Assembly (NCBI GenBank): GCA_963695555.1
Contig: CAVOGR010000002.1
Location: 32,001-96,000, forward strand
Direction of reading: 5' to 3'
DNA: 64,000 nucleotides
Source of the DNA: an uncultured Gemmatimonadales bacterium
Lineage (GTDB): Bacteria > Gemmatimonadota > Gemmatimonadetes > Gemmatimonadales > GWC2-71-9
How positions within the stretch are numbered: position 1 is the stretch's first letter; each line of letters opens with the position of its first letter. The notes beneath the pieces are model-generated. The model was not told where the DNA came from. It searched no databases and saw only the letters and a program-made list of their open reading frames with translations. The translations under genes were made by a program, and so were the position numbers. Below are positions 48,692 to 61,822 of this stretch, in pieces.

Positions 48692-51600
48692 TTACTCCTT
48701 CCTCTTCACTTCCAACAACCACCCCTTCCCCGGTTCGACCGGGATCGCCTGATCGATGTCGAAGCTCCGGGCTTCCTGGAACCCTTCGACCGCGGGTGCG
48801 CTGATGCTCGCCGCTCGTGGGTCGATGCCCAACGCATCCCAATCGATTTGGAGTCGGACCTGGACCGGCGACTCGGCCCAACTGGCCAACGCCACGAGTG
48901 CAGCACCGTCCTTGAGGTAGGCCGTCGCGAGCAGGTCTTCCCGTCCGGTTCGCACCGGGCGATCCGGCACCCAGTAACCCACCATGCGGGTGCTCTGTAT
49001 GCCGAACGCGTCCCAGAGCTTCCAGAGCGGCCGCGGGTCGCCGGCCCACGGCAGCCGGCTGGTCATGCCGTAGACCATGCCGCGCCACGGGTTGCCGCCG
49101 TCCTGGAGCATCTCTCCCATCAGTCCAAAGGGGATGCCGGACATTTCCACCAGCCAGAACTCCGGGGGCGCGTCGTAGTCGAAGTACTCGCCGAACCAGA
49201 GCCGGTTGATAAACGGAAAGTGCTCCAGGTAGAGGTTGGCGCTGTTGGCGAAGCCGTCGCGCTCGTTGAACTGGTTGGCCGAGTGGAGGTCGATGAGGGC
49301 GCCCGGGCGATTCCGGTCGAGGACCTTCCGAACTCGTTTCATAATCGAGCGATCGAACGCCACGTCATCGATGTAGAGTCCGTCGATGCCGACGTTTCTG
49401 ACCAGCCAGTTCAATCCCTCGACATAGTAATTGTGCCAGCGTGAGATCCCGGTGTTGACGATGGCGGCGTCCTTGATCCGCGGCACGTGCCACGCCGCGA
49501 TGTAGTTGCCGTCCAGATGTTCCTGCAGCCAGGAAAACCCGCCGCCCTCGCCGGGAGAGAACACCTCGTCACCCAGGCTCTTCAAGGCGAACAGCTCAGG
49601 CGCCTTGTTGGTCAGCTCGCGAACGGTGTAGTAGATCTTGACCTTCATCCCGCGCGCATGGGCGTCGTCGATATAGGCCTTCATCTCCGCGGGGCGAAGG
49701 AAGGGGTAGTTGATCCACGGGTTGATCTCGGTCGCGTGATGCACGTTGATCGTGTTGGCACCCGTGAGCGCCACACTGTCGAGTGGCTCGAATGCATGGA
49801 AGTACCGGGTGGCCCATTGCGCAGGCGTATCGATCGGCTTGAAGGGTGTCAACAAGAGCAGGAAGTCGTAGCGTTGCACCTCGCCGGCGCGGAACGTCCG
49901 CGGCCCGCTGTAGCAGGTGACCAGGTAGGTGTCCTCGTCCCGGTCGCGGAAGCGGCACCCACCGCGGCCGCCATTGTGCCAGGACGCCGGCATCACCAGC
50001 GGCTTCGACAGGTAGAAGTTGGTGTTGAGCGGACGCGAGTACTTGTCGTCCTTGAGCCGAAACTGAAGCCCGGCGTTCACGTCGCCGATCCAGGCCCCGT
50101 CCTGGTTGTGCTGCACCTGCCAGGTCCAATCGAACGTGGCTGGGGCGAAGCCTCCCTTGAGACCCATGCCCATGGCGTACCGTGCCACGTCTTTCCGGAT
50201 GGGGATCTCGAGCCGGATGTCGCGCACGCTGGTTTCGACGGCACTCTGGAGCGCCACGGTAAACTCGATGTTGCCATCGAATTCCATTTCGGCGTGGAGA
50301 TCCATCACTACCGGCCCGGCCTTGCTCTTCGACTCCCAGGCGGCGGCGCCCTCGGCCTGCTTCACGAACACGATGGGACTGCCCTCCCAGGGAATCGGGC
50401 GACCGTCCTGGCCTTCGATCACCAGGGCCACGGGACCTCGCAGCAGGTCCCGCCCACGGTCGACCAGTCGCGTCATCTCGGGGGCGAAGAAGCTGGTGAT
50501 TTGGACGGGCAGGCCGTGCAAGCCGAGGGTCACCTTGCGTCCCAGGACGGACACGGTGCCGCCCCGGACCTCGACCTTGGTGTACGGCGGCACGAGCCCG
50601 TCGTCCTCGGCCAAGCGAGAGTCGAGCCAGCGCAATCGAGCGAGCCGCCAGGGTTCGTCGTCGCCCGAGCTGTGCAGCAAGAAGCGGGTCACGTCGATCT
50701 CGAGATCGACGGTGGTTTTCGCCAGTCCCACCGGCGCGACGGTCAGTTGGCCGCGGTACAGCCCGGCCGCCGCGGAATCGGGTATGCGGACGCCGCACCA
50801 GAGCGGTTGCACCGTGCCCAGGTCGACCGTGACCCGCTTAGTGAAGGGCCTGCCCCGCCAGTCGACCCCTCCCAGGTTGATACACCGGAAGGCCGAGGCT
50901 GGAATCACGTAGCCGGCGCGTGACGTGGTGAGATCGCCGAATTCAACCCGCACATCATCGATGCGCTGCCGCGCGGCGTAGATGCCGAGTTGGAACGGGT
51001 AGAATTCCCCTCGCTGTGCCGTGCCTTGAAACGGAAGCCCGGCCTCCGTCTGCGTCCATTTGTGGGGCAGGTCGCCGTGCATCCGGATCGGCAGCGAGCG
51101 ATCCTCCGGAAACACGAGGTAGGGCGTGTCGGGATACCGTGCCACGAGCGCCTGCATCTCCGTCCTGGTCGCGATTACTTCCATCGGGTAGAAGCTGTTG
51201 AACTCATCCACTGATTGGAGCTCGACGACCTGCCCGCGGGGAAACTCGCTGAGCCGGTCTCTCACGGCAGACGGTACCACGAGCCCGTGACGCTCGAGCC
51301 AGCTGGAGTCGGCCGGCACTGCAGGGGGCGGATAGGTGATCTTCGGGTAGTTCGATCGGACGGTGCCCGTGTAGGGCAGGTAGTAGACATAGTACTGGCC
51401 TGGCGCGATCACGGGCTGGAACACGAGGTCGCCATATTCGCGATTGATCGCGATGCGGGCGACGTTCCGGATCCGCGCACCGCTTCCCGCGTCGACAATG
51501 ATGATGTTCTTCTTTTCCGGCTCGAGGTCCCGGCGACGCCACGGAATGCGCACCCAGACGGCATCGACGTCGTTTGTGACGCGGACCACCGCCCGGTGGT

Positions 51601-51712
51601 TGCCGAACGAATCGGGCTCCCACGTGCCGGTGCCGTAGCTGGGAACCTGAGCGACTGCGATACCGGAGAGCGTCGCCAGAGCGAAGGCGGCAGTGAGTAT
51701 GAGACGTTTCAT
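48692..51712 (-). CDS. Secreted putative glycoside hydrolase (DUF6067-type)
   Basis: Signal peptide, GNHRAVVRV..PWRRRD, HHATEINPWINYPF, DGLYIDD, LWFGE. Confidence 0.72.
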   Translation of the reverse strand: MKRLILTAAFALATLSGIAVAQVPSYGTGTWEPDSFGNHRAVVRVTNDVDAVWVRIPWRRRDLEPEKKNIIIVDAGSGARIRNVARIAINREYGDLVFQPVIAPGQYYVYYLPYTGTVRSNYPKITYPPPAVPADSSWLERHGLVVPSAVRDRLSEFPRGQVVELQSVDEFNSFYPMEVIATRTEMQALVARYPDTPYLVFPEDRSLPIRMHGDLPHKWTQTEAGLPFQGTAQRGEFYPFQLGIYAARQRIDDVRVEFGDLTTSRAGYVIPASAFRCINLGGVDWRGRPFTKRVTVDLGTVQPLWCGVRIPDSAAAGLYRGQLTVAPVGLAKTTVDLEIDVTRFLLHSSGDDEPWRLARLRWLDSRLAEDDGLVPPYTKVEVRGGTVSVLGRKVTLGLHGLPVQITSFFAPEMTRLVDRGRDLLRGPVALVIEGQDGRPIPWEGSPIVFVKQAEGAAAWESKSKAGPVVMDLHAEMEFDGNIEFTVALQSAVETSVRDIRLEIPIRKDVARYAMGMGLKGGFAPATFDWTWQVQHNQDGAWIGDVNAGLQFRLKDDKYSRPLNTNFYLSKPLVMPASWHNGGRGGCRFRDRDEDTYLVTCYSGPRTFRAGEVQRYDFLLLLTPFKPIDTPAQWATRYFHAFEPLDSVALTGANTINVHHATEINPWINYPFLRPAEMKAYIDDAHARGMKVKIYYTVRELTNKAPELFALKSLGDEVFSPGEGGGFSWLQEHLDGNYIAAWHVPRIKDAAIVNTGISRWHNYYVEGLNWLVRNVGIDGLYIDDVAFDRSIMKRVRKVLDRNRPGALIDLHSANQFNERDGFANSANLYLEHFPFINRLWFGEYFDYDAPPEFWLVEMSGIPFGLMGEMLQDGGNPWRGMVYGMTSRLPWAGDPRPLWKLWDAFGIQSTRMVGYWVPDRPVRTGREDLLATAYLKDGAALVALASWAESPVQVRLQIDWDALGIDPRAASISAPAVEGFQEARSFDIDQAIPVEPGKGWLLEVKRKE

Positions 51713-51749: not shown

Positions 51750-53672
51750 CTACGGTGTCCGGCCGCGTCTCAACCGCTCGATCATGAGTTCGTGCGCGAC
51801 GCCGACAAAACTCTGTTCGCTCACCAACCCGACGAGCTTCCCGTGGGAGACGACCGGGAGGGCGGAGACTCGCTTGGCGCTCATGAGCTCGATGGCCTCG
51901 ATCGTCGGCATGTCCGGTGGAACAGTAATGGGATCTGCGTACATGATCTCCCGCACCGCCATGGTGCCTTCGTTGGGAATGCCGCCCTCGGCCAAGAGCC
52001 GAATCAGGAGCCGGTACGAGACGATCCCAACCAACTGATGGTCATGGTCTTCCACCAGCACATGTCGGAGTTGCTTCCGATCCATGACGAAGGCGACCCG
52101 ATCAACCAGTTCGTCTTCGCTGACGGTGAAGAGATCGGTGTCCATGAACTGCTCGATGCGGGCGTAGGCCTCTTCCCAGCCGGCCGACTCATCCAGGCGG
52201 GCCAACGGCCATTCGTGGACCGGCGCCCGCGTCTCCTGACGGGCCACGGTTGCGGCCGTAAGCGCCGCGAGGTGCTCGGCCGTGTTGCCCTTTCCGCTCA
52301 TCGCGGCCAGCGACTCCAACAGCCAGCTGGCACCGACCCGCCGGCTTGCGACCCGCGCGTCGATGACGCCGAGGTAGCGGTCGATGTCCGACGAGTCGAC
52401 CGCAACCGACTCGAGGCCCGCACGCGCCAGCGGCAAGAGCTGGGAGAGGATCAACTCGGGCGCGGTCACCATCTGCCCATCGATCCAATTGAAACCGGCC
52501 TTGAGTCCCAACCGACCGGCCGCCACGAAATTCGCTTTGGCATCCGAGAAATCCAGCCGGTGGGAAATGTCCCCGAGTTCTTCAGTGGCGCCCAGCATGA
52601 GCCCGGCCCAAAAGGCGGCGTTGGCCACTTCATCGAGCACCGAGGGACCTGCGGGCAGCAGTCGGCACTCGATCCTCAGGTGGGCATGGCCGTTTCCGAT
52701 GCCGTAACAGGCGCGGTTCCAGGTGTAGACCGTGCTATTGTGGAGACGCAGTGCCTGGAGCTCGGGCGCTCGCCCCGCGTCGATCTCGCGCATGGAGTCT
52801 TGGGTGACCGGCGTGGCCATGAGAACCGGGAATCGGGCGACGTCCTCCTGGAACACCTCGAGCACGCTCTCCTTGACCCATCGCTCCCCGAAGCGCACCC
52901 GTGGGCTGAGTTCGCGGGCGTGTACGCTCGCTCGCCGGGTATCGATGGACTGCCGGAAGAGGGCGATCCGCGTCTCCATCCAGAGCCGCCGCCCGAAGAG
53001 CAGCGGCGAATTCACCGCCGCGGCCAACACCGGCGCCGCAATCGCCTGGGCCATGTTGTAGAACCGGGCGAATTCCTCGGCGCTGACCTGGAGGTGGATC
53101 TGGAAGCTGGTATTGCAGGCTTCGAGCATGACGTTGTCGTGCTCGACGTGTAATTCGTCGGCGCCCTCGACATGGAGATGGAGCGGTCCGCCGCGGAGTC
53201 GGCACGTGGCGTCATTGAGCGCTTGGTACCGGGGCCGCGGGCTCATGTTGTCCAGTCGCAGATCGGACTTGGACAGGGTCGGCAGAATGCCGGTCAGGAC
53301 GACCTTGGCATGAGCCTCGTGGGCGGCAGCGCCAAGCATGGCGAGCAGCGAATCGAGCTCATGTTCCATCGCCCCGAAACACCCGCCCGCGAGGGGGGAG
53401 GGGCTGAGATTCGTCTCCAGATTGAACCGCGCCAGCTCGGTCGTGAAGCGCGGGTCATTCAGGGTCTCCAGTATCTCCAAAGCGACCGGCGCGGGCTTCC
53501 AGGCACGGTCGACCAGAAAGACTTCCTGCTCCGCCCCGATCCGACGTTGTCCCGATTCGATCATGCCAAGCGACAGCAAGCGTTCGAGCGCGTTGAGGTC
53601 GCTCAGGAGATGCCGCGTGAATTTCCGGATAGCCTCGGGGGAAAGATCCGGCTGAACGTCCTGCTGGCCCAC
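51750..53672 (-). CDS. Glutamate-cysteine ligase (GCS2) family protein with C-terminal CBS pair
   Basis: RIGAEQE, ELARFNLE, EACNTSFQIHLQV, NSPLLFG, HLRIECR; CBS tandem at the C-terminus. Confidence 0.88.
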   Translation of the reverse strand: MGQQDVQPDLSPEAIRKFTRHLLSDLNALERLLSLGMIESGQRRIGAEQEVFLVDRAWKPAPVALEILETLNDPRFTTELARFNLETNLSPSPLAGGCFGAMEHELDSLLAMLGAAAHEAHAKVVLTGILPTLSKSDLRLDNMSPRPRYQALNDATCRLRGGPLHLHVEGADELHVEHDNVMLEACNTSFQIHLQVSAEEFARFYNMAQAIAAPVLAAAVNSPLLFGRRLWMETRIALFRQSIDTRRASVHARELSPRVRFGERWVKESVLEVFQEDVARFPVLMATPVTQDSMREIDAGRAPELQALRLHNSTVYTWNRACYGIGNGHAHLRIECRLLPAGPSVLDEVANAAFWAGLMLGATEELGDISHRLDFSDAKANFVAAGRLGLKAGFNWIDGQMVTAPELILSQLLPLARAGLESVAVDSSDIDRYLGVIDARVASRRVGASWLLESLAAMSGKGNTAEHLAALTAATVARQETRAPVHEWPLARLDESAGWEEAYARIEQFMDTDLFTVSEDELVDRVAFVMDRKQLRHVLVEDHDHQLVGIVSYRLLIRLLAEGGIPNEGTMAVREIMYADPITVPPDMPTIEAIELMSAKRVSALPVVSHGKLVGLVSEQSFVGVAHELMIERLRRGRTP

Positions 53673-55769: not shown

Positions 55770-56654
55770 TCAAAGCTGCCGCGCCAGTGCGACCAGGTCG
55801 GCGGTCGTGCCCGAAGTGACGAAGGCGATCGTCCCGTTTCGGTCGATCAGGTAGACCATCCGGGTGTGCACCACGTCTCCCGTGGTCTCGTCCCTGGCCC
55901 GGGTCACGTTCCAGTGATCGAGCACTCCTTCGACTTGGTCGATGGTCCCGCTCAGCACGTGACCGCGGGCTCCGAGCTCCCACTGCTCGGCCAGCGCGGG
56001 CAGGCGGGTCGGCACGTCGCGCCACGGATCGAGTGTCACGACAAGAGCCACCGGATCGAGGTCCAATACCTCGTCGCACGCCCGAAGCACGTCGCGCACC
56101 ACGACCGGGCACACCGTTTCACAATGGCCGAACGCAAAGGTCACGAAGACCGGCCGGCCACGAAAAAGCTCGAGCGAGACGTCGTGACCGTACTGATCCA
56201 CCAGGCGTAGGCTCGGTGCGGCCCGATCGAGTCGGGGCGGAAGCGACGCAACAGCCTCGGACGCGACAGGAGGGTCGTCGAATGCGCCCTCTGCGGCCGA
56301 GGCATTCAGCACCCGTAGCGTGGCAGCGGTGAATCCGGCACCGAGCAAGAGCCCGAGCGCCCCCAACGCGATCCGCCCACCGAGCCACCCGCTCAGGCTC
56401 CTCACTCCGCCCTCCAGCGCCTCGCCCCAGAGGGCGAACAACACGCCGAACATGATGGTGGGTTGAAGTACGAGCGCGACCCACCCGGCGGCGTCGGGTA
56501 GGCCACCGGGGGCCGCTCCGAAGCAGACTTCCCGCGTGCGGGCGAGCCAGGTGGCGCTTGCCGTCGCGGGCCAAAGGGCCAGGGCCCACCAGACCACGGT
56601 GATGCCGATGAGGCAGGTGGCCGCCGCAAGCGCGGCGGCCTCACGCGACCGCAT
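55770..56654 (-). CDS. SCO1/SenC copper chaperone with extended N-terminal membrane domain
   Basis: FGHCETVCP (CxxxC), VVHTRMVYLID; three N-terminal hydrophobic segments. Confidence 0.9.
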   Translation of the reverse strand: MRSREAAALAAATCLIGITVVWWALALWPATASATWLARTREVCFGAAPGGLPDAAGWVALVLQPTIMFGVLFALWGEALEGGVRSLSGWLGGRIALGALGLLLGAGFTAATLRVLNASAAEGAFDDPPVASEAVASLPPRLDRAAPSLRLVDQYGHDVSLELFRGRPVFVTFAFGHCETVCPVVVRDVLRACDEVLDLDPVALVVTLDPWRDVPTRLPALAEQWELGARGHVLSGTIDQVEGVLDHWNVTRARDETTGDVVHTRMVYLIDRNGTIAFVTSGTTADLVALARQL

Positions 56655-56660
56655 GTACCC

Positions 56661-58355
56661 TCATCCGATCTTCCACAGGAAGGACAGGAGCTTCCAATTC
56701 ACGAAGTAGTACACCACGAACGCCGCGAGGAACACGAAGACCAGCACCATCGTCCCGCGTGAGGCGAGCAATGCGCCGCCGGCCGCGTCGCCTGCCGGCA
56801 GGGCACTCGGCGGATTCAGGATACCCGGCGGAAGCCCCCGGGTGGAACCTGCTTCCAGCTTCTTGCCGAAGAACACCGACCACACGGTCACCAGGATGAA
56901 GATCCCGCCACCTAGCGCGGCTAGGAGGCCGCCGATGGCCATGATGCCGATCAGGAGGTCGACCGCCGGAGAGAATTGGATGTCGAACGGCGCCTGGGCG
57001 AAGCTGATGTCCCAGTGCCGCCGCGGCACGCCGAAGGTGCCCGCGAAGGTCATGCAGATCGAAAAGATGAACATGCCGATGGCGAAGAGATACGGCTGGA
57101 TCTTGGCCAACGGCCAAAACGCGACCTCTTTTCGGAACACCAACGGAATCACGTAGTACGTCAGCCCCATGAAGGCGAGGGCCGTCCCGCTCACCACCGT
57201 GGCGTGGAAGTGGCCCGGAATGCGGAGGGTGTTGTGGGCGATGATGTTGATTTGCTCCGTGCCGAACGTGACGCCGGTGATGCCGCCGACAAATCCGAAC
57301 ACCACGACGGAGAACACCAAGGCACTGAACCCCGGATCGCCCCAGGGTGCTTTCCGGAGCCACTCGAATAAACCTTTGGTGAGCCCGCGCACCCGTTGCC
57401 CCAGTTCGATTCCTGCGGGGACGGTAAAGCCGTGGATCATGCTGGCGAGCACGGCCAGGTACATGGCATAGCTCGTGTTCCACACCTTCCAGGCTGGGCC
57501 CATGCCGGGATCGACCAGGAGGTGGTGCGCCGACGCCATGGAAATGAAGAGCACGTAGAGCACGAAGGCCGTGCGGCTGATCTTCTCGTTGATGACGACC
57601 GAGCCCACCGTCAACGCGCCCAGGAGGTACCACACCGACACCATGGCCGCCATGTTGATCTGCTGCGACGAGTGGCCCAGGCCCCACCAGACCAGCCGGT
57701 AGATCTGGGGATCCATATCCATCCAACCCATCGACCAGAAGAAGGTCGGGATGTAAGCCGCGGCCCCGTGCCCCAACGTGATGACCGCAATGATGGCCGC
57801 GGTCGTGGCACCGAAGGTGATGAGCGGCATCGAACCCTCGTAGGTCTTTTCCCGCTTCGCTACCACCAGCGTGCCGAAGAAGATGCCCACAACCAGCAAG
57901 GCACCGACCGCGAAGAGAATGACACCCAGGTAGAACAGCGGATCGGCCCGGAGCGGCACGTACGAGGTGAACAGGACGTCCGCCTTCCCCGCAATCATCA
58001 TCCACTCTACCATGACGGTTCCCAGCACCATGAGGCCGAAGGAAAACCATGCCAGCCGTGGAGCTGGGACGCGGCTGTTCAGAAGTACCGCGCTCGCGAA
58101 GTAGAGGATGGCCATCTCGAAGAACAGGATGAAGAAGATCAACATGTTCATCCCGTGAATGGTCAGCACGCGGTAGAACCACGTGGCGTCCAGTAGATGG
58201 ACCGCCTGCCACCGCGTCAGGAGGACGAGAATGGCCGCAATGCCACCGATCAGGAGCGTGACGGTGCCGGCGACCGCGTTGGCCTTGATGAGCGCGTCCG
58301 CCTGTGCGTGCACCTTGAGTCCCGTCGTGGGACAGACTCGGAAGTTCGAGTTCAT
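56661..58355 (-). CDS. Heme-copper oxidoreductase subunit I, B-family-derived, probable eNOR-type nitric oxide reductase
   Basis: All six His present (IHG, GH, AHH, HFH), but helix VI reads WWGLGHSSQQIN instead of GHPxVY. Confidence 0.85.
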   Translation of the reverse strand: MNSNFRVCPTTGLKVHAQADALIKANAVAGTVTLLIGGIAAILVLLTRWQAVHLLDATWFYRVLTIHGMNMLIFFILFFEMAILYFASAVLLNSRVPAPRLAWFSFGLMVLGTVMVEWMMIAGKADVLFTSYVPLRADPLFYLGVILFAVGALLVVGIFFGTLVVAKREKTYEGSMPLITFGATTAAIIAVITLGHGAAAYIPTFFWSMGWMDMDPQIYRLVWWGLGHSSQQINMAAMVSVWYLLGALTVGSVVINEKISRTAFVLYVLFISMASAHHLLVDPGMGPAWKVWNTSYAMYLAVLASMIHGFTVPAGIELGQRVRGLTKGLFEWLRKAPWGDPGFSALVFSVVVFGFVGGITGVTFGTEQINIIAHNTLRIPGHFHATVVSGTALAFMGLTYYVIPLVFRKEVAFWPLAKIQPYLFAIGMFIFSICMTFAGTFGVPRRHWDISFAQAPFDIQFSPAVDLLIGIMAIGGLLAALGGGIFILVTVWSVFFGKKLEAGSTRGLPPGILNPPSALPAGDAAGGALLASRGTMVLVFVFLAAFVVYYFVNWKLLSFLWKIG

Positions 58356-58936
58356 TGGACGCCCTCCTCAGCGACAGCCTCGGTGTTCAGCGCCGTGGTT
58401 GGCCCGTCGACCACCACGACCTTGCCGAGCATCAGGTGGTGGCCGATGCCGCAGAACTCGTTGCAGATGATGCGGAAATCGCCGGCCTCGGTCGGGGTGA
58501 CGCGCAGGCCGTAGTCGTAGCCGGGAACGATCTGGAAATTGATGTTCAACGGATAGAGACTGAACCCGTGATTCACGTCGAGCGACGAGATGTGCAGGGT
58601 GTATTGCACGTCCTTCTGGAGACGCAAGACCGGACGCCAGCTATACATCGACGCCGAGAGATAGATGTCGCTCCCAGGGGGAGGTTCGACGACCGGAATG
58701 CCTTGCTCGGTCCCGACCTGATACGTGCGGATGAACTCTTCCGTGCGGGCGCGGAACGCCTCCGGCTCCACCCGGCTCCGGATGCCGGACGGATTCTGTC
58801 CGCCGCGAACGTGCCACAGGGGCATCATGGCGAACAGCACCATGCACCAGACGAAAGCCACGATTACCCAAAGGCGCTCGGTCTTGTGCGCGGGCTTCCA
58901 CCAGATCCCCTTGGGGGATTGGACGCCTGTATTCAT
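58352..58936 (-). CDS. CuA-containing subunit II
   Basis: DVNHGF...CNEFCGIGHHLM CuA motif, one N-terminal TM; ATGA overlap with subunit I. Confidence 0.93.
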   Translation of the reverse strand: MNTGVQSPKGIWWKPAHKTERLWVIVAFVWCMVLFAMMPLWHVRGGQNPSGIRSRVEPEAFRARTEEFIRTYQVGTEQGIPVVEPPPGSDIYLSASMYSWRPVLRLQKDVQYTLHISSLDVNHGFSLYPLNINFQIVPGYDYGLRVTPTEAGDFRIICNEFCGIGHHLMLGKVVVVDGPTTALNTEAVAEEGVQ

Positions 58937-58952
58937 CGGTGTGCTCCGCCGC

Positions 58953-59126
58953 TCAGGGGAGGGTGGCCTTCGGGAGGGATGCGATCTCCCACAGGCCCCA
59001 CAGGGTGTAGAACAGGAGCATGACGACGATTCCGGCTACTAAGAGCAGGAACGGGTTGTCGTACAGCCGCTGGCCCAACGGAACTTCGGTCCCCGCGTCC
59101 GTCGTCCTTTCGTGATCATCCGCCAT
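58953..59126 (-). CDS. 57-aa single-TM protein, probable small accessory subunit (not in the ORF track)
   Basis: AGGAGG SD; MADDHERTTDAGTEVPLGQRLYDNPFLLLVAGIVVMLLFYTLWGLWEIASLPKATLP*. Confidence 0.8.
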   Translation of the reverse strand: MADDHERTTDAGTEVPLGQRLYDNPFLLLVAGIVVMLLFYTLWGLWEIASLPKATLP

Positions 59127-59138
59127 CGTGCGCCTCCT

Positions 59139-59564
59139 CTAGGGTGTCCGGCCAGCCACACGAACTGGCTGCCCAACCACTTCGGCCACCGTGGTGTCTC
59201 GTACGAACCGGGCGACCTCCTCGCCCAACCGGCTCCAGCGCGAATGCACCGCGCAGGCCCGTTCATCCGAACATTCCGCCCGTCCCAACAGGCAGCGCCG
59301 GCGGGCGTCGACCGACTCGAATACCGAGACCACGTCCAGCAACGAGACTTCCTCGGCGGGCCGGCTGAGCTCGAAACCGCCGTGCTTTCCGCGGGATGAC
59401 TTGACCACACCGGCCCGAGCCATCGCGTGCATGATTTTCGACAGGTAGTTGGCGGGCACACCGATGGCCCCGGCAATCTCGGCGACCGGCTCGGGGCCGC
59501 TGCCCCAGCGCTTCGCCAAGTGGAACACCGCGCTGAGGGCGTATTCCGAGGTTCCAGAAAACAT
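59139..59564 (-). CDS. Rrf2-family transcriptional regulator with three Cys (Fe-S type)
   Basis: SEYALSAVFHLA, YLSKIM..L/M..G.V.S.RG..GGFEL, CLLGRAECSDERACAVH. Confidence 0.92.
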   Translation of the reverse strand: MFSGTSEYALSAVFHLAKRWGSGPEPVAEIAGAIGVPANYLSKIMHAMARAGVVKSSRGKHGGFELSRPAEEVSLLDVVSVFESVDARRRCLLGRAECSDERACAVHSRWSRLGEEVARFVRDTTVAEVVGQPVRVAGRTP

Positions 59565-59599: not shown

Positions 59600-59657
59600 T
59601 AATTACGATATTGACATGAGACAAGCATATTATGCATCCCGCGCGGGGTGAGTGCAA
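59600..59657 (-). promoter_or_regulatory. Promoter of the rrf2-oxidase operon with overlapping imperfect palindrome
   Basis: TTGCAC-N17-CATAAT; GATGCATAATATGCTTG dyad over the -10. Confidence 0.55.
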
Positions 59658-59702: not shown

Positions 59703-61277
59703 ATGAGATCCTGGGGTAAGCGGCTCGAAGGGGCGGCATTTCGGGTCCTGTCCCGGGCCGACGCCTTCATGAACCGGCTCTACACCTGGCGCTTCAATCC
59801 GCTCTATCACAGCGGGGCGCTGGTGGTGGTGCTGTTCATCGCGGTGACTGTGACCGGGATCTATCTGCTTTTTTTCTATCGGGTTAGCGCGCCATACCAG
59901 TCGATTGCCAGGCTCCAGGACCAGGTCTGGTTGGGACGCTGGATTCGTTCGTTCCACCGCTATGCCTCCGACGCGGCGGTGGTTGCGGCCTTGGTTCACG
60001 CCTTCCGGGTATTCGCCCAAGGTCGCAGCTGGGGGCCCCGCACCCTGGCCTGGGTCAGTGGGGTGGCCCTGCTCTCCGTTACCCTGATCTGCGGCTGGAC
60101 CGGCTACGTCATGGTTTGGGACGAACAGGGCCTGGTCCTGGCCCGGGAGGGCGCCCGGTTCCTCGATGCCCTCCCCTTGTTCTCGGAGCCCATCAGCCGG
60201 GCATTCGTGGGCGACCGGCTGATCCCGAACGCGTTCTTCTTTCTGAATCTCTTCCTGCACGTCGCACTTCCGATCGGGATCGGCGTCGTGCTGTGGCTCC
60301 ACGTCTCGCGCGTGGCCAGAGCCGCGCTCCTGCCACCGCGCGCCCTGAGCTGGGCGGTCCTGGGCCTGCTGCTCGGACTCTCGGTCCTCTGGCCCGCCGC
60401 CCTCGGACCGGCGGCCGACTTGTTTCGATTGCCGCAACGAGCGCCGTTCGATCTGTTCTACTCAGGCTGGCTCCCGCTCACCAGGAATCTGTCGGCCGGT
60501 CTGGTCTGGCTCGTGGGTGGCACACTCGCCGCGATCTTCGTGGCCACCCCATGGTGGATCGGCGGCCGCAGCCGACGCGTCGAGTCGATGCAGCCCTCCT
60601 TCGTGGTCCAGCGGCTCTGCGATGCCTGCCGAACGTGCTATCTGGATTGCCCCTACGAAGCGATCGACATGGTGGCGCGTACTGACGGGCGCCCCGGTCT
60701 CGTCGCCCGCGTCGATCCGGCGCTCTGCGTCAGCTGCGGTATTTGCGCCGGGTCGTGCGCCCCGATGGGGGTCGGGCCCCCAAAGCGAACGGGCCGATAC
60801 CAGGTCGCCGCCGTCGAGCAGTTCATCGCCGACCACACGCTCGGCTCGGACGACGTCGTGATCATTGGCTGTTCCTTCGGCGCCGGGAACGTCACTCGAG
60901 GGACAACGTTCGACGGTGCATGTATCTTTCCGGTCGACTGCGCCGGGAGCATGCATACCTCGGTGGTGGAGTACCTGGTGCGGTCAGGCGTGGGTGGGGT
61001 GTTGATCGTATCTTGCCCCCCACGCGATTGCTGGCATCGCGAAGGCCCCAAGTGGCTGGAACAGCGGCTCTATCACGGTAGAGAGGCCGAGCTCAAGGAG
61101 CGGGTCGACCGGCGGCGCATCAGGCTGGCGCACGCCGGGCTCGCGGAACCATACCTCGTTCGGCAGGTGTTGGCTGAGTTCCGCCGTGAGCTGGCCGCGC
61201 TCGAAGTGGCCAGCGCGGAAGAGGATATCGCGCTGAGTATCGAGTGCGCGGCACCGGTAGAAGAGGTCGAGTCGTGA
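59703..61277 (+). CDS. Fusion: cytochrome b/b6-like + 2x[4Fe-4S] ferredoxin + MvhD/FlpD-like [2Fe-2S] domain
   Basis: RSFHRYASD..LVHAFRVF, WTGYVMVWD, FLHV..WLHV (4 heme His); CDACRTCYLDCP and CVSCGICAGSC; GC...VDCAG...GVLIVSCPPRDCWH. Confidence 0.88.
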   Translation: MRSWGKRLEGAAFRVLSRADAFMNRLYTWRFNPLYHSGALVVVLFIAVTVTGIYLLFFYRVSAPYQSIARLQDQVWLGRWIRSFHRYASDAAVVAALVHAFRVFAQGRSWGPRTLAWVSGVALLSVTLICGWTGYVMVWDEQGLVLAREGARFLDALPLFSEPISRAFVGDRLIPNAFFFLNLFLHVALPIGIGVVLWLHVSRVARAALLPPRALSWAVLGLLLGLSVLWPAALGPAADLFRLPQRAPFDLFYSGWLPLTRNLSAGLVWLVGGTLAAIFVATPWWIGGRSRRVESMQPSFVVQRLCDACRTCYLDCPYEAIDMVARTDGRPGLVARVDPALCVSCGICAGSCAPMGVGPPKRTGRYQVAAVEQFIADHTLGSDDVVIIGCSFGAGNVTRGTTFDGACIFPVDCAGSMHTSVVEYLVRSGVGGVLIVSCPPRDCWHREGPKWLEQRLYHGREAELKERVDRRRIRLAHAGLAEPYLVRQVLAEFRRELAALEVASAEEDIALSIECAAPVEEVES

Positions 61278-61822
61278 TGGGACGCCCCGTGGTAATGGCG
61301 CTTGGAGCCGTCCTCGCGGTGGGCGGTATGATGGCACTGGGTGCGTTGTCCCAGATTCCGTACCAACCCGAGGAGGCGACGCACGCCGTGATTCGGCTCG
61401 CCTGGCGGGCCCGGGGCGTCGCGGTCAAGGAGTGCCGCACGATGACGCCGGAAGAGCTCGAGAAGGTGGCCGTTCATATGCGGCGGACCGAAGTGTGCGA
61501 AGGGCGGACCCTGCCCTATCAGCTCCGCGCGGTAGTTGACGGCGATGTCCGGGTCGATGAAGCCGTCGAGGCAGGCGGCGCCCGTGGCGACCGGCCGCTC
61601 TTCGTGCTCCACGATCTTCCGGTGGCCCCAGGCTCGCACCAAGTGGAGGTCTCATTTACTCGCGAGAGAGCGCCCGCAGAGGCTACGGACAGTACGGAGG
61701 TCACCCCGGCCAGACTGGAACTCGACCGATCGATCGAGGTGGTATCGGGGCAGGTCGTGCTCGTGACCTACGACCCGGATACCAAAACCATGATCGTTCA
61801 GGACGCGCCCGCGACTCGTTGA
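61277..61822 (+). CDS. Membrane-anchored hypothetical protein coupled to the cytochrome b fusion
   Basis: TGATG overlap; N-terminal hydrophobic helix; KECR..PEELEKVAVHMRRTEVCEG. Confidence 0.8.
   Translation: MGRPVVMALGAVLAVGGMMALGALSQIPYQPEEATHAVIRLAWRARGVAVKECRTMTPEELEKVAVHMRRTEVCEGRTLPYQLRAVVDGDVRVDEAVEAGGARGDRPLFVLHDLPVAPGSHQVEVSFTRERAPAEATDSTEVTPARLELDRSIEVVSGQVVLVTYDPDTKTMIVQDAPATR

Follow-up and report, generated by a model that had tools for sequence, protein, structure and literature searches.

A probable eNOR-type nitric oxide reductase operon in a Gemmatimonadales bacterium and its divergent cytochrome b/FeS gene pair

An uncultured Gemmatimonadales bacterium carries an operon that resembles one for a cytochrome oxidase, and the question is whether its product reduces oxygen or nitric oxide. 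The operon was analyzed within a window, which is a stretch of 64,000 nucleotides from this genome. A sequence-only reading had proposed an eNOR-type NO reductase encoded with four further ORFs; all five are found where it had put them, on the minus strand. They code for a Rrf2-family regulator (141 aa, 59139..59564), a 57-aa single-helix membrane protein (58953..59126), subunit II with one membrane helix and a CuA domain (58352..58936), subunit I (564 aa, 56661..58355) and a SCO copper chaperone (55770..56654). The successive gaps are 12, 16, -4 and 6 nt. Two genes diverge from the operon on the plus strand. One codes for a fusion of a di-haem cytochrome b with a 2x[4Fe-4S] ferredoxin and an MvhD/FlpD-like domain (59703..61277). 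The start of the other overlaps the stop of the first, and it codes for a 181-aa membrane-anchored beta-sandwich protein, the partner of the cytochrome b (61277..61822). The coordinates of the sequence-only reading leave this pair out. A plasmid locus from Defluviimonas, a culturable host, has the same set of seven genes, and Magnetospirillum and Turneriella are further culturable carriers of it.

Subunit I belongs to the haem-copper superfamily and is derived from the B family. It was aligned with its counterparts from 75 of 80 related loci (76 sequences in total; five sequences shorter than 500 aa were left out). The six metal-binding His (67, 228, 277, 278, 382, 384) are invariant in all 76. 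From the alignment to Thermus ba3, we take His67 and His384 to be the ligands of the low-spin haem and His382 that of the high-spin haem. His228, His277 and His278 are presumably the active-site metal ligands. In the HMMER alignment to the same ba3, Gln232 falls on the cross-link Tyr: the motif is GHSSQQIN (residues 227-234; 57654..57677, running from nt 57677 to 57654 on the minus strand), as compared to GHPIVYF in ba3. The six His and the exchange of Tyr for Gln, on which the NO reductase reading had been built, are thereby confirmed. GH-xx-QQIN occurs in 80/80 related loci, so that the motif is due neither to chance nor to a sequencing error. These loci were chosen with query-derived patterns and are hence the closest kin of the query.

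The eNOR from R. marinus is marked by Q245, Y256, S318, H321 and, in subunit II, E21 (PMC11214002 Dataset S1). All five eNOR residues of Murali et al. 2024 are matched in the window: Q232, Y243, S305 and H308 are each offset by 13 from the R. marinus numbering, and Glu20 of subunit II is the counterpart of the published channel-entry residue II-E21. Y243, S305 and H308 are K-channel-like residues, and the His is specific to eNOR. They are kept among the relatives (Q232, Y243 and H308 in 76/76 sequences, S305 in 75/76, II-E20 in 78/78). The cross-link Tyr on helix VI that characterizes A- and B-family O2 reductases is absent, its place being taken by Gln232. In a tree of 23 rows, from which nine near-redundant rows had been dropped and which holds no R. 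marinus eNOR, bNOR or sNOR references, 13 Gln-type rows are split from nine Tyr-type B rows and one A-family row with a support of 100/100. Isolate J028 has an ortholog of subunit I (L062) with 78% identity, and its genome is scored ENOR=1 in the available part of PMC11214002 (Dataset S8). The other NO reductase classes were considered and rejected. A bNOR or sNOR should have an Asn in place of the Tyr and a channel Thr, while Gln232 and His308 are found; neither the Glu of the nNOR site nor the His-to-Asp exchange of gNOR occurs. The Gln site, the channel residues, a subunit II with Glu and CuA, six His with His/His at the low-spin haem (eNORs have His/His or His/Lys there) and a separate clade are all present, and every sequence feature inspected agrees with the eNOR-type assignment. 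Judged by its sequence, subunit I is a member of the already known and common eNOR family.

The remaining operon genes are as described earlier, with a CuA subunit II, a 57-aa TM ORF, SCO and a Rrf2 protein with three Cys. The CuA ligands of subunit II (H123, C158, E160, C162, H166, M169) are invariant in 78/78 sequences. The 57-aa protein has one hydrophobic segment and a homolog in 76 of the 80 loci. It matches nothing in Pfam and NCBIfam; a comparison with the solved ba3 subunit IIa found nothing at E up to 10, and one with Pfam for subunit IIa gave no consistent match, short helices being hard to detect. From position and size we nevertheless consider it likely to be the counterpart of ba3 subunit IIa. 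SCO has the C178-x3-C182 motif and H263, as well as an N-terminal three-helix membrane domain with an invariant Cys44.

The Rrf2 regulator had been taken for an NO sensor, and this is not borne out. The protein has exactly three Cys (91, 98, 104), which together with His107 form an IscR-like Cys3-His107 set. This His is kept in 43/43 Rrf2 sequences. In contrast, Asp8, which is the fourth cluster ligand in NsrR, is not conserved: the window protein has Glu7, and Glu is found in 20 of 43 relatives. The protein scores 75.9 bits with the IscR profile (TIGR02010, cut-off 207.55) and 44.4 bits with that of NsrR (NF008240, cut-off 182). The comparison with solved structures gave 60 bits for IscR and 27 bits for NsrR. 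An identity as NsrR was rejected from the ligands (invariant His107, no conserved Asp8) and from these scores, although the protein may still respond to NO. The Rrf2 gene heads only 38 of 76 related operons, and the window protein is only 28% identical to the Rrf2 adjoining the eNOR on a Thermus plasmid.

A conserved AT-rich pseudo-palindrome lies between the divergent genes (59603..59623, plus strand). It is a candidate operator, or else may be a trace of overlapping promoters. A weak sigma-70-like promoter candidate, TTGCAC-17-CATAAT (59629..59657, minus strand), was picked by eye; it does not reach the threshold of a promoter scan that returned 0 sites. With a matrix for the motif, 30 matches above 11 bits were obtained genome-wide, the window site ranking second with 18.1 bits. 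Of these matches, 21 were checked. A genome-wide regulon of the motif was rejected: called genes contain 11 of the 21 checked matches, and not one of all 30 is upstream of nirS. By binding at this intergenic site, which the two divergent units share, the Rrf2 protein would likely repress both of them.

The cytochrome b/FeS pair tracks the enzyme more closely than Rrf2 does. The pair is found in 73 of the 80 eNOR loci, across many phyla, and the cytochrome b/FeS gene is present in 65 of the 69 genomes with eNOR in a phylum sample of 301. The remaining four genomes have an eNOR without the module, as have the Thermomicrobium and Thermus plasmid loci; the module is thus not obligatory. The haem ligands of the cytochrome b are H85, H99, H186 and H200. 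Its Qo-motif region is degenerate (F-D-L-F), with Asp in 66 of 69 sequences and Trp in 11 of 69. No Rieske gene adjoins the cytochrome b gene, and there is neither a FAD nor a NADH domain among the Pfam matches of the fusion. In the partner, C53, H67, M68 and C74 are conserved.

The cytochrome b domain and the partner are predicted to bind each other (ipSAE 0.88, as compared to 0.00 for the best control); the ipSAE mark is reached by 116 of 157 solved pairs and by two of 215 mismatched pairs. At least 98% of the contacts are shared between prediction runs, with a pLDDT of at least 80 for the partner, which reaches 93 when modelled alone. Foldseek found nothing similar to the partner model at E up to 0.001. 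The best structural match (Z 7.7, rmsd 3.5, 97 aligned) is to generic beta-sandwiches, and neither cupredoxin nor Rieske folds are among the matches listed, although the partner may still have such a fold. An Atlas search returned only unnamed clusters at scores of at least 0.9, and one FlpD-bearing cluster at 0.80. We think it likely that the cytochrome b/FeS protein and the partner make up an accessory complex of their own, dedicated to this system.

For the role of the pair, we give electron supply about an even chance; assembly or cofactor maturation is less probable, and some other role is unlikely. It is tempting to speculate that the commonest eNOR clade is the end of a dedicated Rieske-less wire, rather than a two-subunit enzyme fed by soluble cytochrome c. 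The cytochrome b with its three cytoplasmic FeS clusters would draw low-potential electrons from the cytoplasm across two haems. The tightly bound periplasmic beta-sandwich would cap the decayed Qo side and would face the CuA of eNOR with a Cys/His-Met site. We put this proposal forward tentatively and expect that it may well fail. If it holds, about a fifth of Gemmatimonadota genomes encode a new kind of NO-respiring module that conserves energy, and half of these genomes produce no NO of their own. The predicted complex of cytochrome b and partner offers a concrete target for work on how eNOR obtains its electrons in cells, and the pair would matter more than the annotation. In the mostly open-access literature covered, only a preprint on Ferrigenium discusses the module together with eNOR; supplementary gene-neighbourhood figures may already show the pair.

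The window genome is 87% complete. It also carries an A-family (GHPEVY) and a B-family (GHPLVY) oxidase, both separate from eNOR, and encodes CtaA and CtaB away from the operon. A search for nirS, nirK and nosZ, as had been suggested, gave a full-length NirS, which does not adjoin the operon. For NirK there is only a weak multicopper-oxidase match (56.6 bits, cut-off 296). NosZ was not found in this 87%-complete genome, where only CuA-domain cross-matches were obtained, and one of two congeners gave nothing. NapA over cut-off and NarG were likewise not found in the window genome. A search for NirDLGH-type haem d1 genes in the window genome gave nothing, and HemB was found neither there nor in a 98%-complete congener, which leaves the cofactor supply without an explanation. 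In this congener, nirS is in two pieces.

The enzyme is found in 69 of the 301 Gemmatimonadota genomes sampled. It is present in 7 of 8 genomes with NirS and in 14 of 31 with NirK over cut-off, as compared to 69 of 301 overall, but close kin among these genomes are not independent. Only 21 of the 69 eNOR genomes have NirS or an over-cut-off NirK, and 33 have neither NirS nor even a weak NirK-like match, several of these being assembled in 1-4 contigs. A tie of eNOR to the host's own denitrification is therefore not general. The family has been described and purified and is common, with 547 entries in the GTDB column of Table 1 in the part of PMC11214002 at hand, and Dataset S8 of that paper records it in Gemmatimonadota. 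No paper devoted to eNOR in this phylum was found in the mostly open-access literature covered.

The best explanation overall, and very probably the right one, is that the five-gene operon encodes an eNOR-type NO reductase. The enzyme likely turns NO into the greenhouse gas N2O, as its sequence suggests. By extension from the purified Rhodothermus enzyme and from haem-copper chemistry, electrons would enter at the SCO-loaded CuA and pass via the low-spin haem to the haem/metal centre. Without a Tyr radical, the four-electron reaction with O2 should not be possible, while the two-electron reaction with NO would be. Protons would come from the cytoplasm via a putative channel (II-E20, S305, H308, Y243, Q232), and the charge separation would conserve energy. 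Haem a would be supplied by CtaB and CtaA, whose genes lie outside the operon. NO would stem from the cell's own NirS or from neighbouring cells, and since a NosZ was not found, the N2O would leave the cell. In the available part of PMC11214002, purified R. marinus eNOR reduces NO but not O2. It is the only eNOR assayed for NO reduction in the literature covered, with a low turnover of 0.68 NO per s.

A third terminal oxidase, with another electron source replacing the cross-link Tyr, would fit the nearest solved structures (ba3 O2 reductases, E about 1e-45), the use of CuA and SCO, haem a in relatives and the cytochrome c oxidase names in databases. It is highly improbable given that the Tyr is absent, that intact A- and B-family oxidases already exist in the genome, and that the accessible part of PMC11214002 reports for eNORs neither O2 reduction by the purified enzyme nor a Tyr migrated to helix VII, which is a C-family trait. 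The enzyme is accompanied almost one-to-one by a module with cytoplasmic FeS clusters, and half of the genomes lack a nitrite reductase; this could also indicate that the subclade carries out another nitrogen-oxide or redox reaction, e.g. one driving reverse electron flow towards an acceptor in the cytoplasm. The available part of the Ferrigenium preprint proposes such a function, a quinol:NAD+ oxidoreductase supercomplex (bioRxiv 10.64898/2026.01.22.701106). We regard this as quite improbable: in its active site and channel, the enzyme has exactly the residues listed for R. marinus eNOR, which was assayed, and Pfam detects no FAD/NADH domain in the fusion.

A further alternative differs from the preferred one only in physiological role. 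With the same chemistry, the enzyme would mainly scavenge NO from neighbours or from chemical reactions under low oxygen, outside of a denitrification chain of its own. The 33 genomes devoid of NirS and NirK-like matches point in this direction, as do, in the window genome, the position of the operon away from nir genes, the negative search for nitrate reductases and the lack of a candidate-operator match above 11 bits upstream of nirS. However, this genome has a full-length NirS, eNOR is enriched in genomes with NirS or NirK (21 of 39, as compared to 69 of 301 in the sample), and conservation of the putative proton channel hints that energy is conserved. We give scavenging a serious chance, somewhat short of even.

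With NirS and eNOR, and with no NosZ found, the bacterium would be a net source of N2O, while annotation pipelines record a third cytochrome oxidase. The expectation that standard annotation misses the enzyme holds in so far as RefSeq names its homologs "cbb3-type" or "b(o/a)3-type cytochrome c oxidase subunit I". The eNOR family and misannotation of this kind have, however, already been published, so the value for annotation is small.

Among known systems, Thermus thermophilus ba3 and the genome's own ba3 (G000:C12) share with the window enzyme the fold, the six His, the K-channel Tyr/Ser, the CuA subunit II and, upstream of the latter, a small membrane gene. The window enzyme differs in that Tyr237 is replaced by Gln and Thr312 by His, and in that no Pro follows the first His; identity is about 29%, and the clades are separate. 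The B1 enzymes of the B family combine a Tyr at the site with a channel Thr (PMC11214002 Dataset S1). The bNOR, sNOR, nNOR and gNOR enzymes also lack the cross-link Tyr and have a cupredoxin subunit II. However, the residue at the site is Asn in bNOR and sNOR and Glu in nNOR, as compared to Gln in the window enzyme (residues from PMC11214002 Dataset S1), and these enzymes have Thr or Asn in the channel, where it has His. According to the part of PMC11214002 at hand, gNOR has lost one active-site His, while the window enzyme keeps all three. R. marinus DSM 4252 eNOR (Murali et al. 2024, PMC11214002), compared by its listed residues rather than its full sequence, agrees in the Gln at the Tyr site, in S/H/Y/II-E at identical spacing, in the CuA subunit II and in B-family ancestry; it differs with respect to ctaA/ctaB, which are not in the window operon.

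The regulator shares with IscR and NsrR the winged-helix Rrf2 fold and three C-terminal Cys, and its His107 aligns with that of IscR (cluster ligands from the available part of PMC5411485). It differs in scoring below both NCBIfam cut-offs and in its Cys spacing (6 and 5). The Rrf2 head and the divergent pair also set the window locus apart from the R. marinus eNOR; neither is mentioned in the available text of PMC11214002 or of its preprint. The PDWF-FeS cytochrome b clade, as presented in the accessible part of Kao and Hunte 2014 (PMC4122944), has the same fusion of cytochrome b, 4Fe-4S and MvhD-like domains and no Rieske protein, but the PDWF Qo motif has decayed in the window protein, with only Asp kept. 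The three organisms that Kao and Hunte name are listed with eNOR by Murali (PMC11214002), Alicycliphilus at the genus level. The eNOR operon of Ferrigenium straubiae also has cytochrome b/FeS genes, which the available part of the preprint calls unusual and possible Ferrigenium markers (bioRxiv 10.64898/2026.01.22.701106). In contrast, within the eNOR clade these genes are found in 73/80 loci from many phyla.

The genes for an apparent cytochrome oxidase follow one another on the minus strand in a head-to-tail arrangement. They code, in order, for an Rrf2 family regulator (59139-59564; Pfam Rrf2), a 57-aa ORF (58953-59126; no Pfam match), subunit II (58352-58936; COX2), subunit I (56661-58355; COX1) and SCO (55770-56654; SCO1-SenC), with spacings of 12, 16, -4 and 6 nt. 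The nearest named relatives are Gemmatimonadales genomes (98-99% identity), which makes it very likely that the host belongs to this order. Against the A-family model, for which the cut-off is 670.75, subunit I reaches only 63.7 bits, and ba3 oxidases are its closest solved structures. When aligned to these, GHSSQQI is opposite GHPIVYF, and thus Gln232 stands in place of the cross-link Tyr (GHSSQQIN is encoded by nt 57677-57654). The ba3 operon of this genome has a 46-aa membrane ORF at the position equivalent to that of the 57-aa ORF, the product of which is probably a counterpart of subunit IIa. Residues 1-115 of SCO form a three-helix N-terminal domain that has no Pfam match and contains an invariant Cys44 (67/67 sequences).

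The sequence-only reading had assigned this operon to a probable eNOR-type NO reductase, and this main deduction is right. The diagnostic residues of eNOR are Q245, S318, H321, Y256 and II-E21; the same positions have N/S/T/Y in bNOR, N/-/T/Y in sNOR, E in nNOR and Y/S/T/Y in B1 (PMC11214002, Dataset S1). Gln at the cross-link Tyr position also serves as the eNOR mark in PMC8756737. In the window, subunit I has Q232, S305, H308 and Y243, each numbered 13 below its counterpart from R. marinus, and the channel Glu of subunit II is II-E20. The window protein was aligned with those from 75 of 80 related loci (five of less than 500 aa were left out). No variation is seen at the six His, Q232, Y243 or H308 (76/76), and S305 is found in 75/76. 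A maximum-likelihood phylogeny (23 rows, 540 columns, LG+F+G4; no curated eNOR, bNOR or sNOR reference among them) places 13 Gln-type rows apart from the A-family row and from nine B rows of the Tyr type, with support of 100/100. The subunit I ortholog from the isolate J028 is 78% identical, and the score of J028 in Dataset S8 of PMC11214002 (ENOR=1) is an indirect control for the family placement. The first sheet of that dataset has ENOR=1 in 23 of 28 Gemmatimonadota rows, and the GTDB column of Table 1 gives a total of 547 eNORs. This kind of enzyme is already known and common. Purified eNOR from R. marinus reduces NO, at 0.68 per s, but not O2 (PMC11214002). The order of the genes, the ligands, the Gln in place of Tyr, the channel residues and the co-occurrence are directly observed, and the reaction is transferred from this one purified relative: NO would be converted to N2O via CuA, the low-spin haem and then the haem/metal centre, and O2 would not be reduced. 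Protons would be drawn from the cytoplasm, with energy being conserved.

The source assembly (87% complete) codes for two further haem-copper enzymes (one A-family, one B-family), both with an intact Tyr, and for CtaA and CtaB, both over cut-off. The sequence-only reading had also suggested a search for nirK, nirS and nosZ, of which only nirS was found. NirS is full-length, with two haem c motifs and 524 bits against solved NirS. Neither a NirK over cut-off nor a NosZ was found in the genome; the latter was not found in a 98%-complete congener either but is present in the other congener. Neither NapA over cut-off, nor NarG, nor NirDLGH-type genes were found in the genome. HemB was found neither there nor in the 98%-complete congener. 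The NirS has an additional N-terminal haem c domain and is encoded at G000:C7:363157-368582 (L094:11158-16583, minus strand), where genes for a TonB-dependent receptor and for an alginate-export-type porin lie upstream of it. A second strong haem d1-domain match was not found in this genome. It is possible that haem d1 or haem is taken up from outside. The nirS of the 98%-complete congener consists of two overlapping pieces (G023:C3:17220-18747), due to a frameshift or an assembly error.

Among 301 Gemmatimonadota genomes (one of them, the unpublished G157, counted only in denominators and the weak-hit tally), eNOR occurs in 69, NirS in 8 and NirK over cut-off in 31. NirS or NirK over cut-off accompanies eNOR in 21/69 genomes (36/69 when weak NirK-like matches are counted; neither in 33/69), compared to 18/232 genomes without eNOR. 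Thus, eNOR is enriched alongside NirS/NirK without tight coupling, in a sample where kin are not independent. Elsewhere in the source genome (G000:C1:562000-600000, L095-L096), there are two Rieske/cytochrome b clusters. One of them has several multihaem cytochromes, with as many as 21 CxxCH motifs, next to a gene set resembling that of a [NiFe]-hydrogenase; a number of genes appear to be in pieces, perhaps from long-read errors. The window also codes for a GCS2 (glutamate-cysteine ligase family) domain fused to two CBS domains (51750-53672, minus strand) and for a glycoside hydrolase family 123-like protein (48692-51712, minus strand; 1006 aa) with a signal-like N-terminus.

An accessory gene pair, beyond the operon coordinates of the sequence-only reading, is encoded on the plus strand, 138 bp from the operon. 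The first protein (59703-61277; 524 aa) is a cytochrome b-2x[4Fe-4S]-MvhD fusion; the gene for its 181-aa partner (61277-61822) overlaps by one base. In the fusion, four haem His, eight ferredoxin Cys and three MvhD-type Cys are invariant (69/69), a fourth MvhD-type Cys is found in 67/69, and the Qo motif retains Asp alone. Its cytochrome b has six helices by homology (five by hydropathy), and six would place the FeS domains in the cytoplasm. Fusion, SCO and partner occur in 73, 72 and 69 of the 80 related loci; all seven loci without the fusion are truncated by a contig end. The FeS part occurs in 67/301 genomes, 65 of which also have eNOR, and in 63/65 the listed coordinates put both on the same contig, at most a few kb apart. 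The four eNORs that lack a fusion belong to a distant clade (44-46% identity); the two fusions without eNOR are a broken relic and one on a contig ending inside subunit I. In the single-contig genome G127, a locus relic (L102:8360-10469) retains an intact partner gene and fragments of SCO and Rrf2, but both subunits I and II are missing, as is the cytochrome b domain.

The partner is predicted to fold into a membrane helix and a beta-sandwich (pLDDT 93), with no clear structural match among known structures. A predicted complex of cytochrome b residues 1-295 and the partner scores 0.88 (best control 0.00), which supports binding; the mark was reached by 116/157 solved and 2/215 mismatched pairs, counts only roughly valid for the alignments used. 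At least 98% of contacts are shared between runs, with partner pLDDT of at least 80. Predicted contacts map to helices B and E, the cd region and the ef loop with its decayed Qo motif. None of the conserved residues C53/H67/M68/C74 belongs to the confident contacts, which gives no evidence either way. The model bears on cytochrome b and partner only and says nothing on contact with eNOR.

The sequence-only reading had further proposed that the Rrf2 protein senses NO, which is unproven. Its C91, C98, C104 and H107 are invariant (43/43 sequences). IscR is ligated by three Cys and His107, whereas NsrR from S. coelicolor uses three Cys and Asp8, the latter salt-bridged to Arg12 (PMC5411485). Compared to solved structures, the protein scores 60 bits with IscR, with His107 aligned to that of IscR, and 27 with NsrR; it is below the cut-off of both NCBIfam models. 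By sequence, we consider it an uncharacterised Cys3-His Rrf2 protein; large uncharacterised clusters exist within this family (PMC9218516). The protein may still sense NO, because a Glu/Arg pair in many relatives (Glu at position 7 in 20/43, Arg at position 11 in 31/43) resembles Asp8/Arg12, and because Rrf2 and DUF542 follow the eNOR of a Thermus plasmid as a pair like nsrR-nsrS (PMC5748679), although that Rrf2 is only 28% identical to the one in the window.

An Rrf2 match occurs in 42/80 loci, and Rrf2 heads the operon in 38/76. A conserved pseudo-palindrome lies between the operon and the divergent pair, with 17-38 bits in 38/38 Rrf2-led loci. The matrix was trained on 36 of these 38; the held-out window scores 18 bits. 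Divergent loci without an adjacent Rrf2 reach at least 20 bits in 6/10; all other loci are below 16 (28/28). Overlapping promoters are a real alternative, because the pseudo-palindrome overlaps a likely -10 box in most loci. It is inverted and downstream of the promoter candidate in a few relatives and in the window itself, which would speak for an operator. By eye, TTGAC-N4-GACAA at about 59612-59625 overlaps it. Upstream of the 57-aa gene, loci without Rrf2 (L027, L029, L037, L038, L039, L045, L046, L053) have a box similar to ATGAC-N4-GTCAT or TTGAC-N4-ATCAA, also by eye, which we take to be FNR/DNR-like.

A second, distant Gemmatimonadota eNOR clade (L098:7589-10243, L099:8347-10913, L100:7432-10433, L101:1323-4021; 44-46% identity) has the motif GHG(S/T)QQIN. 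Downstream of its subunit I is a conserved membrane gene of 55-61 aa, and neither SCO nor the cytochrome b pair lies close by; after one copy comes an Rrf2 that is 44% identical to that of the window. The eNOR on Thermus thermophilus plasmid pHB5018d (L106:5193-14200), annotated as cbb3 oxidase, has Lys at the second low-spin haem position; its neighbours are a multicopper oxidase, cytochrome c, a radical SAM gene, Rrf2, DUF542 and YwiC. The cytochrome b/FeS/MvhD architecture has already been published under the name PDWF-FeS clade (PMC4122944), and a Ferrigenium preprint ties such genes to an eNOR operon, with a speculative role (bioRxiv 10.64898/2026.01.22.701106). The accessory pair is missing from the Thermomicrobium and Thermus plasmid eNOR loci. 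A Defluviimonas plasmid carries the same seven-gene set as the window, plus cyoE.
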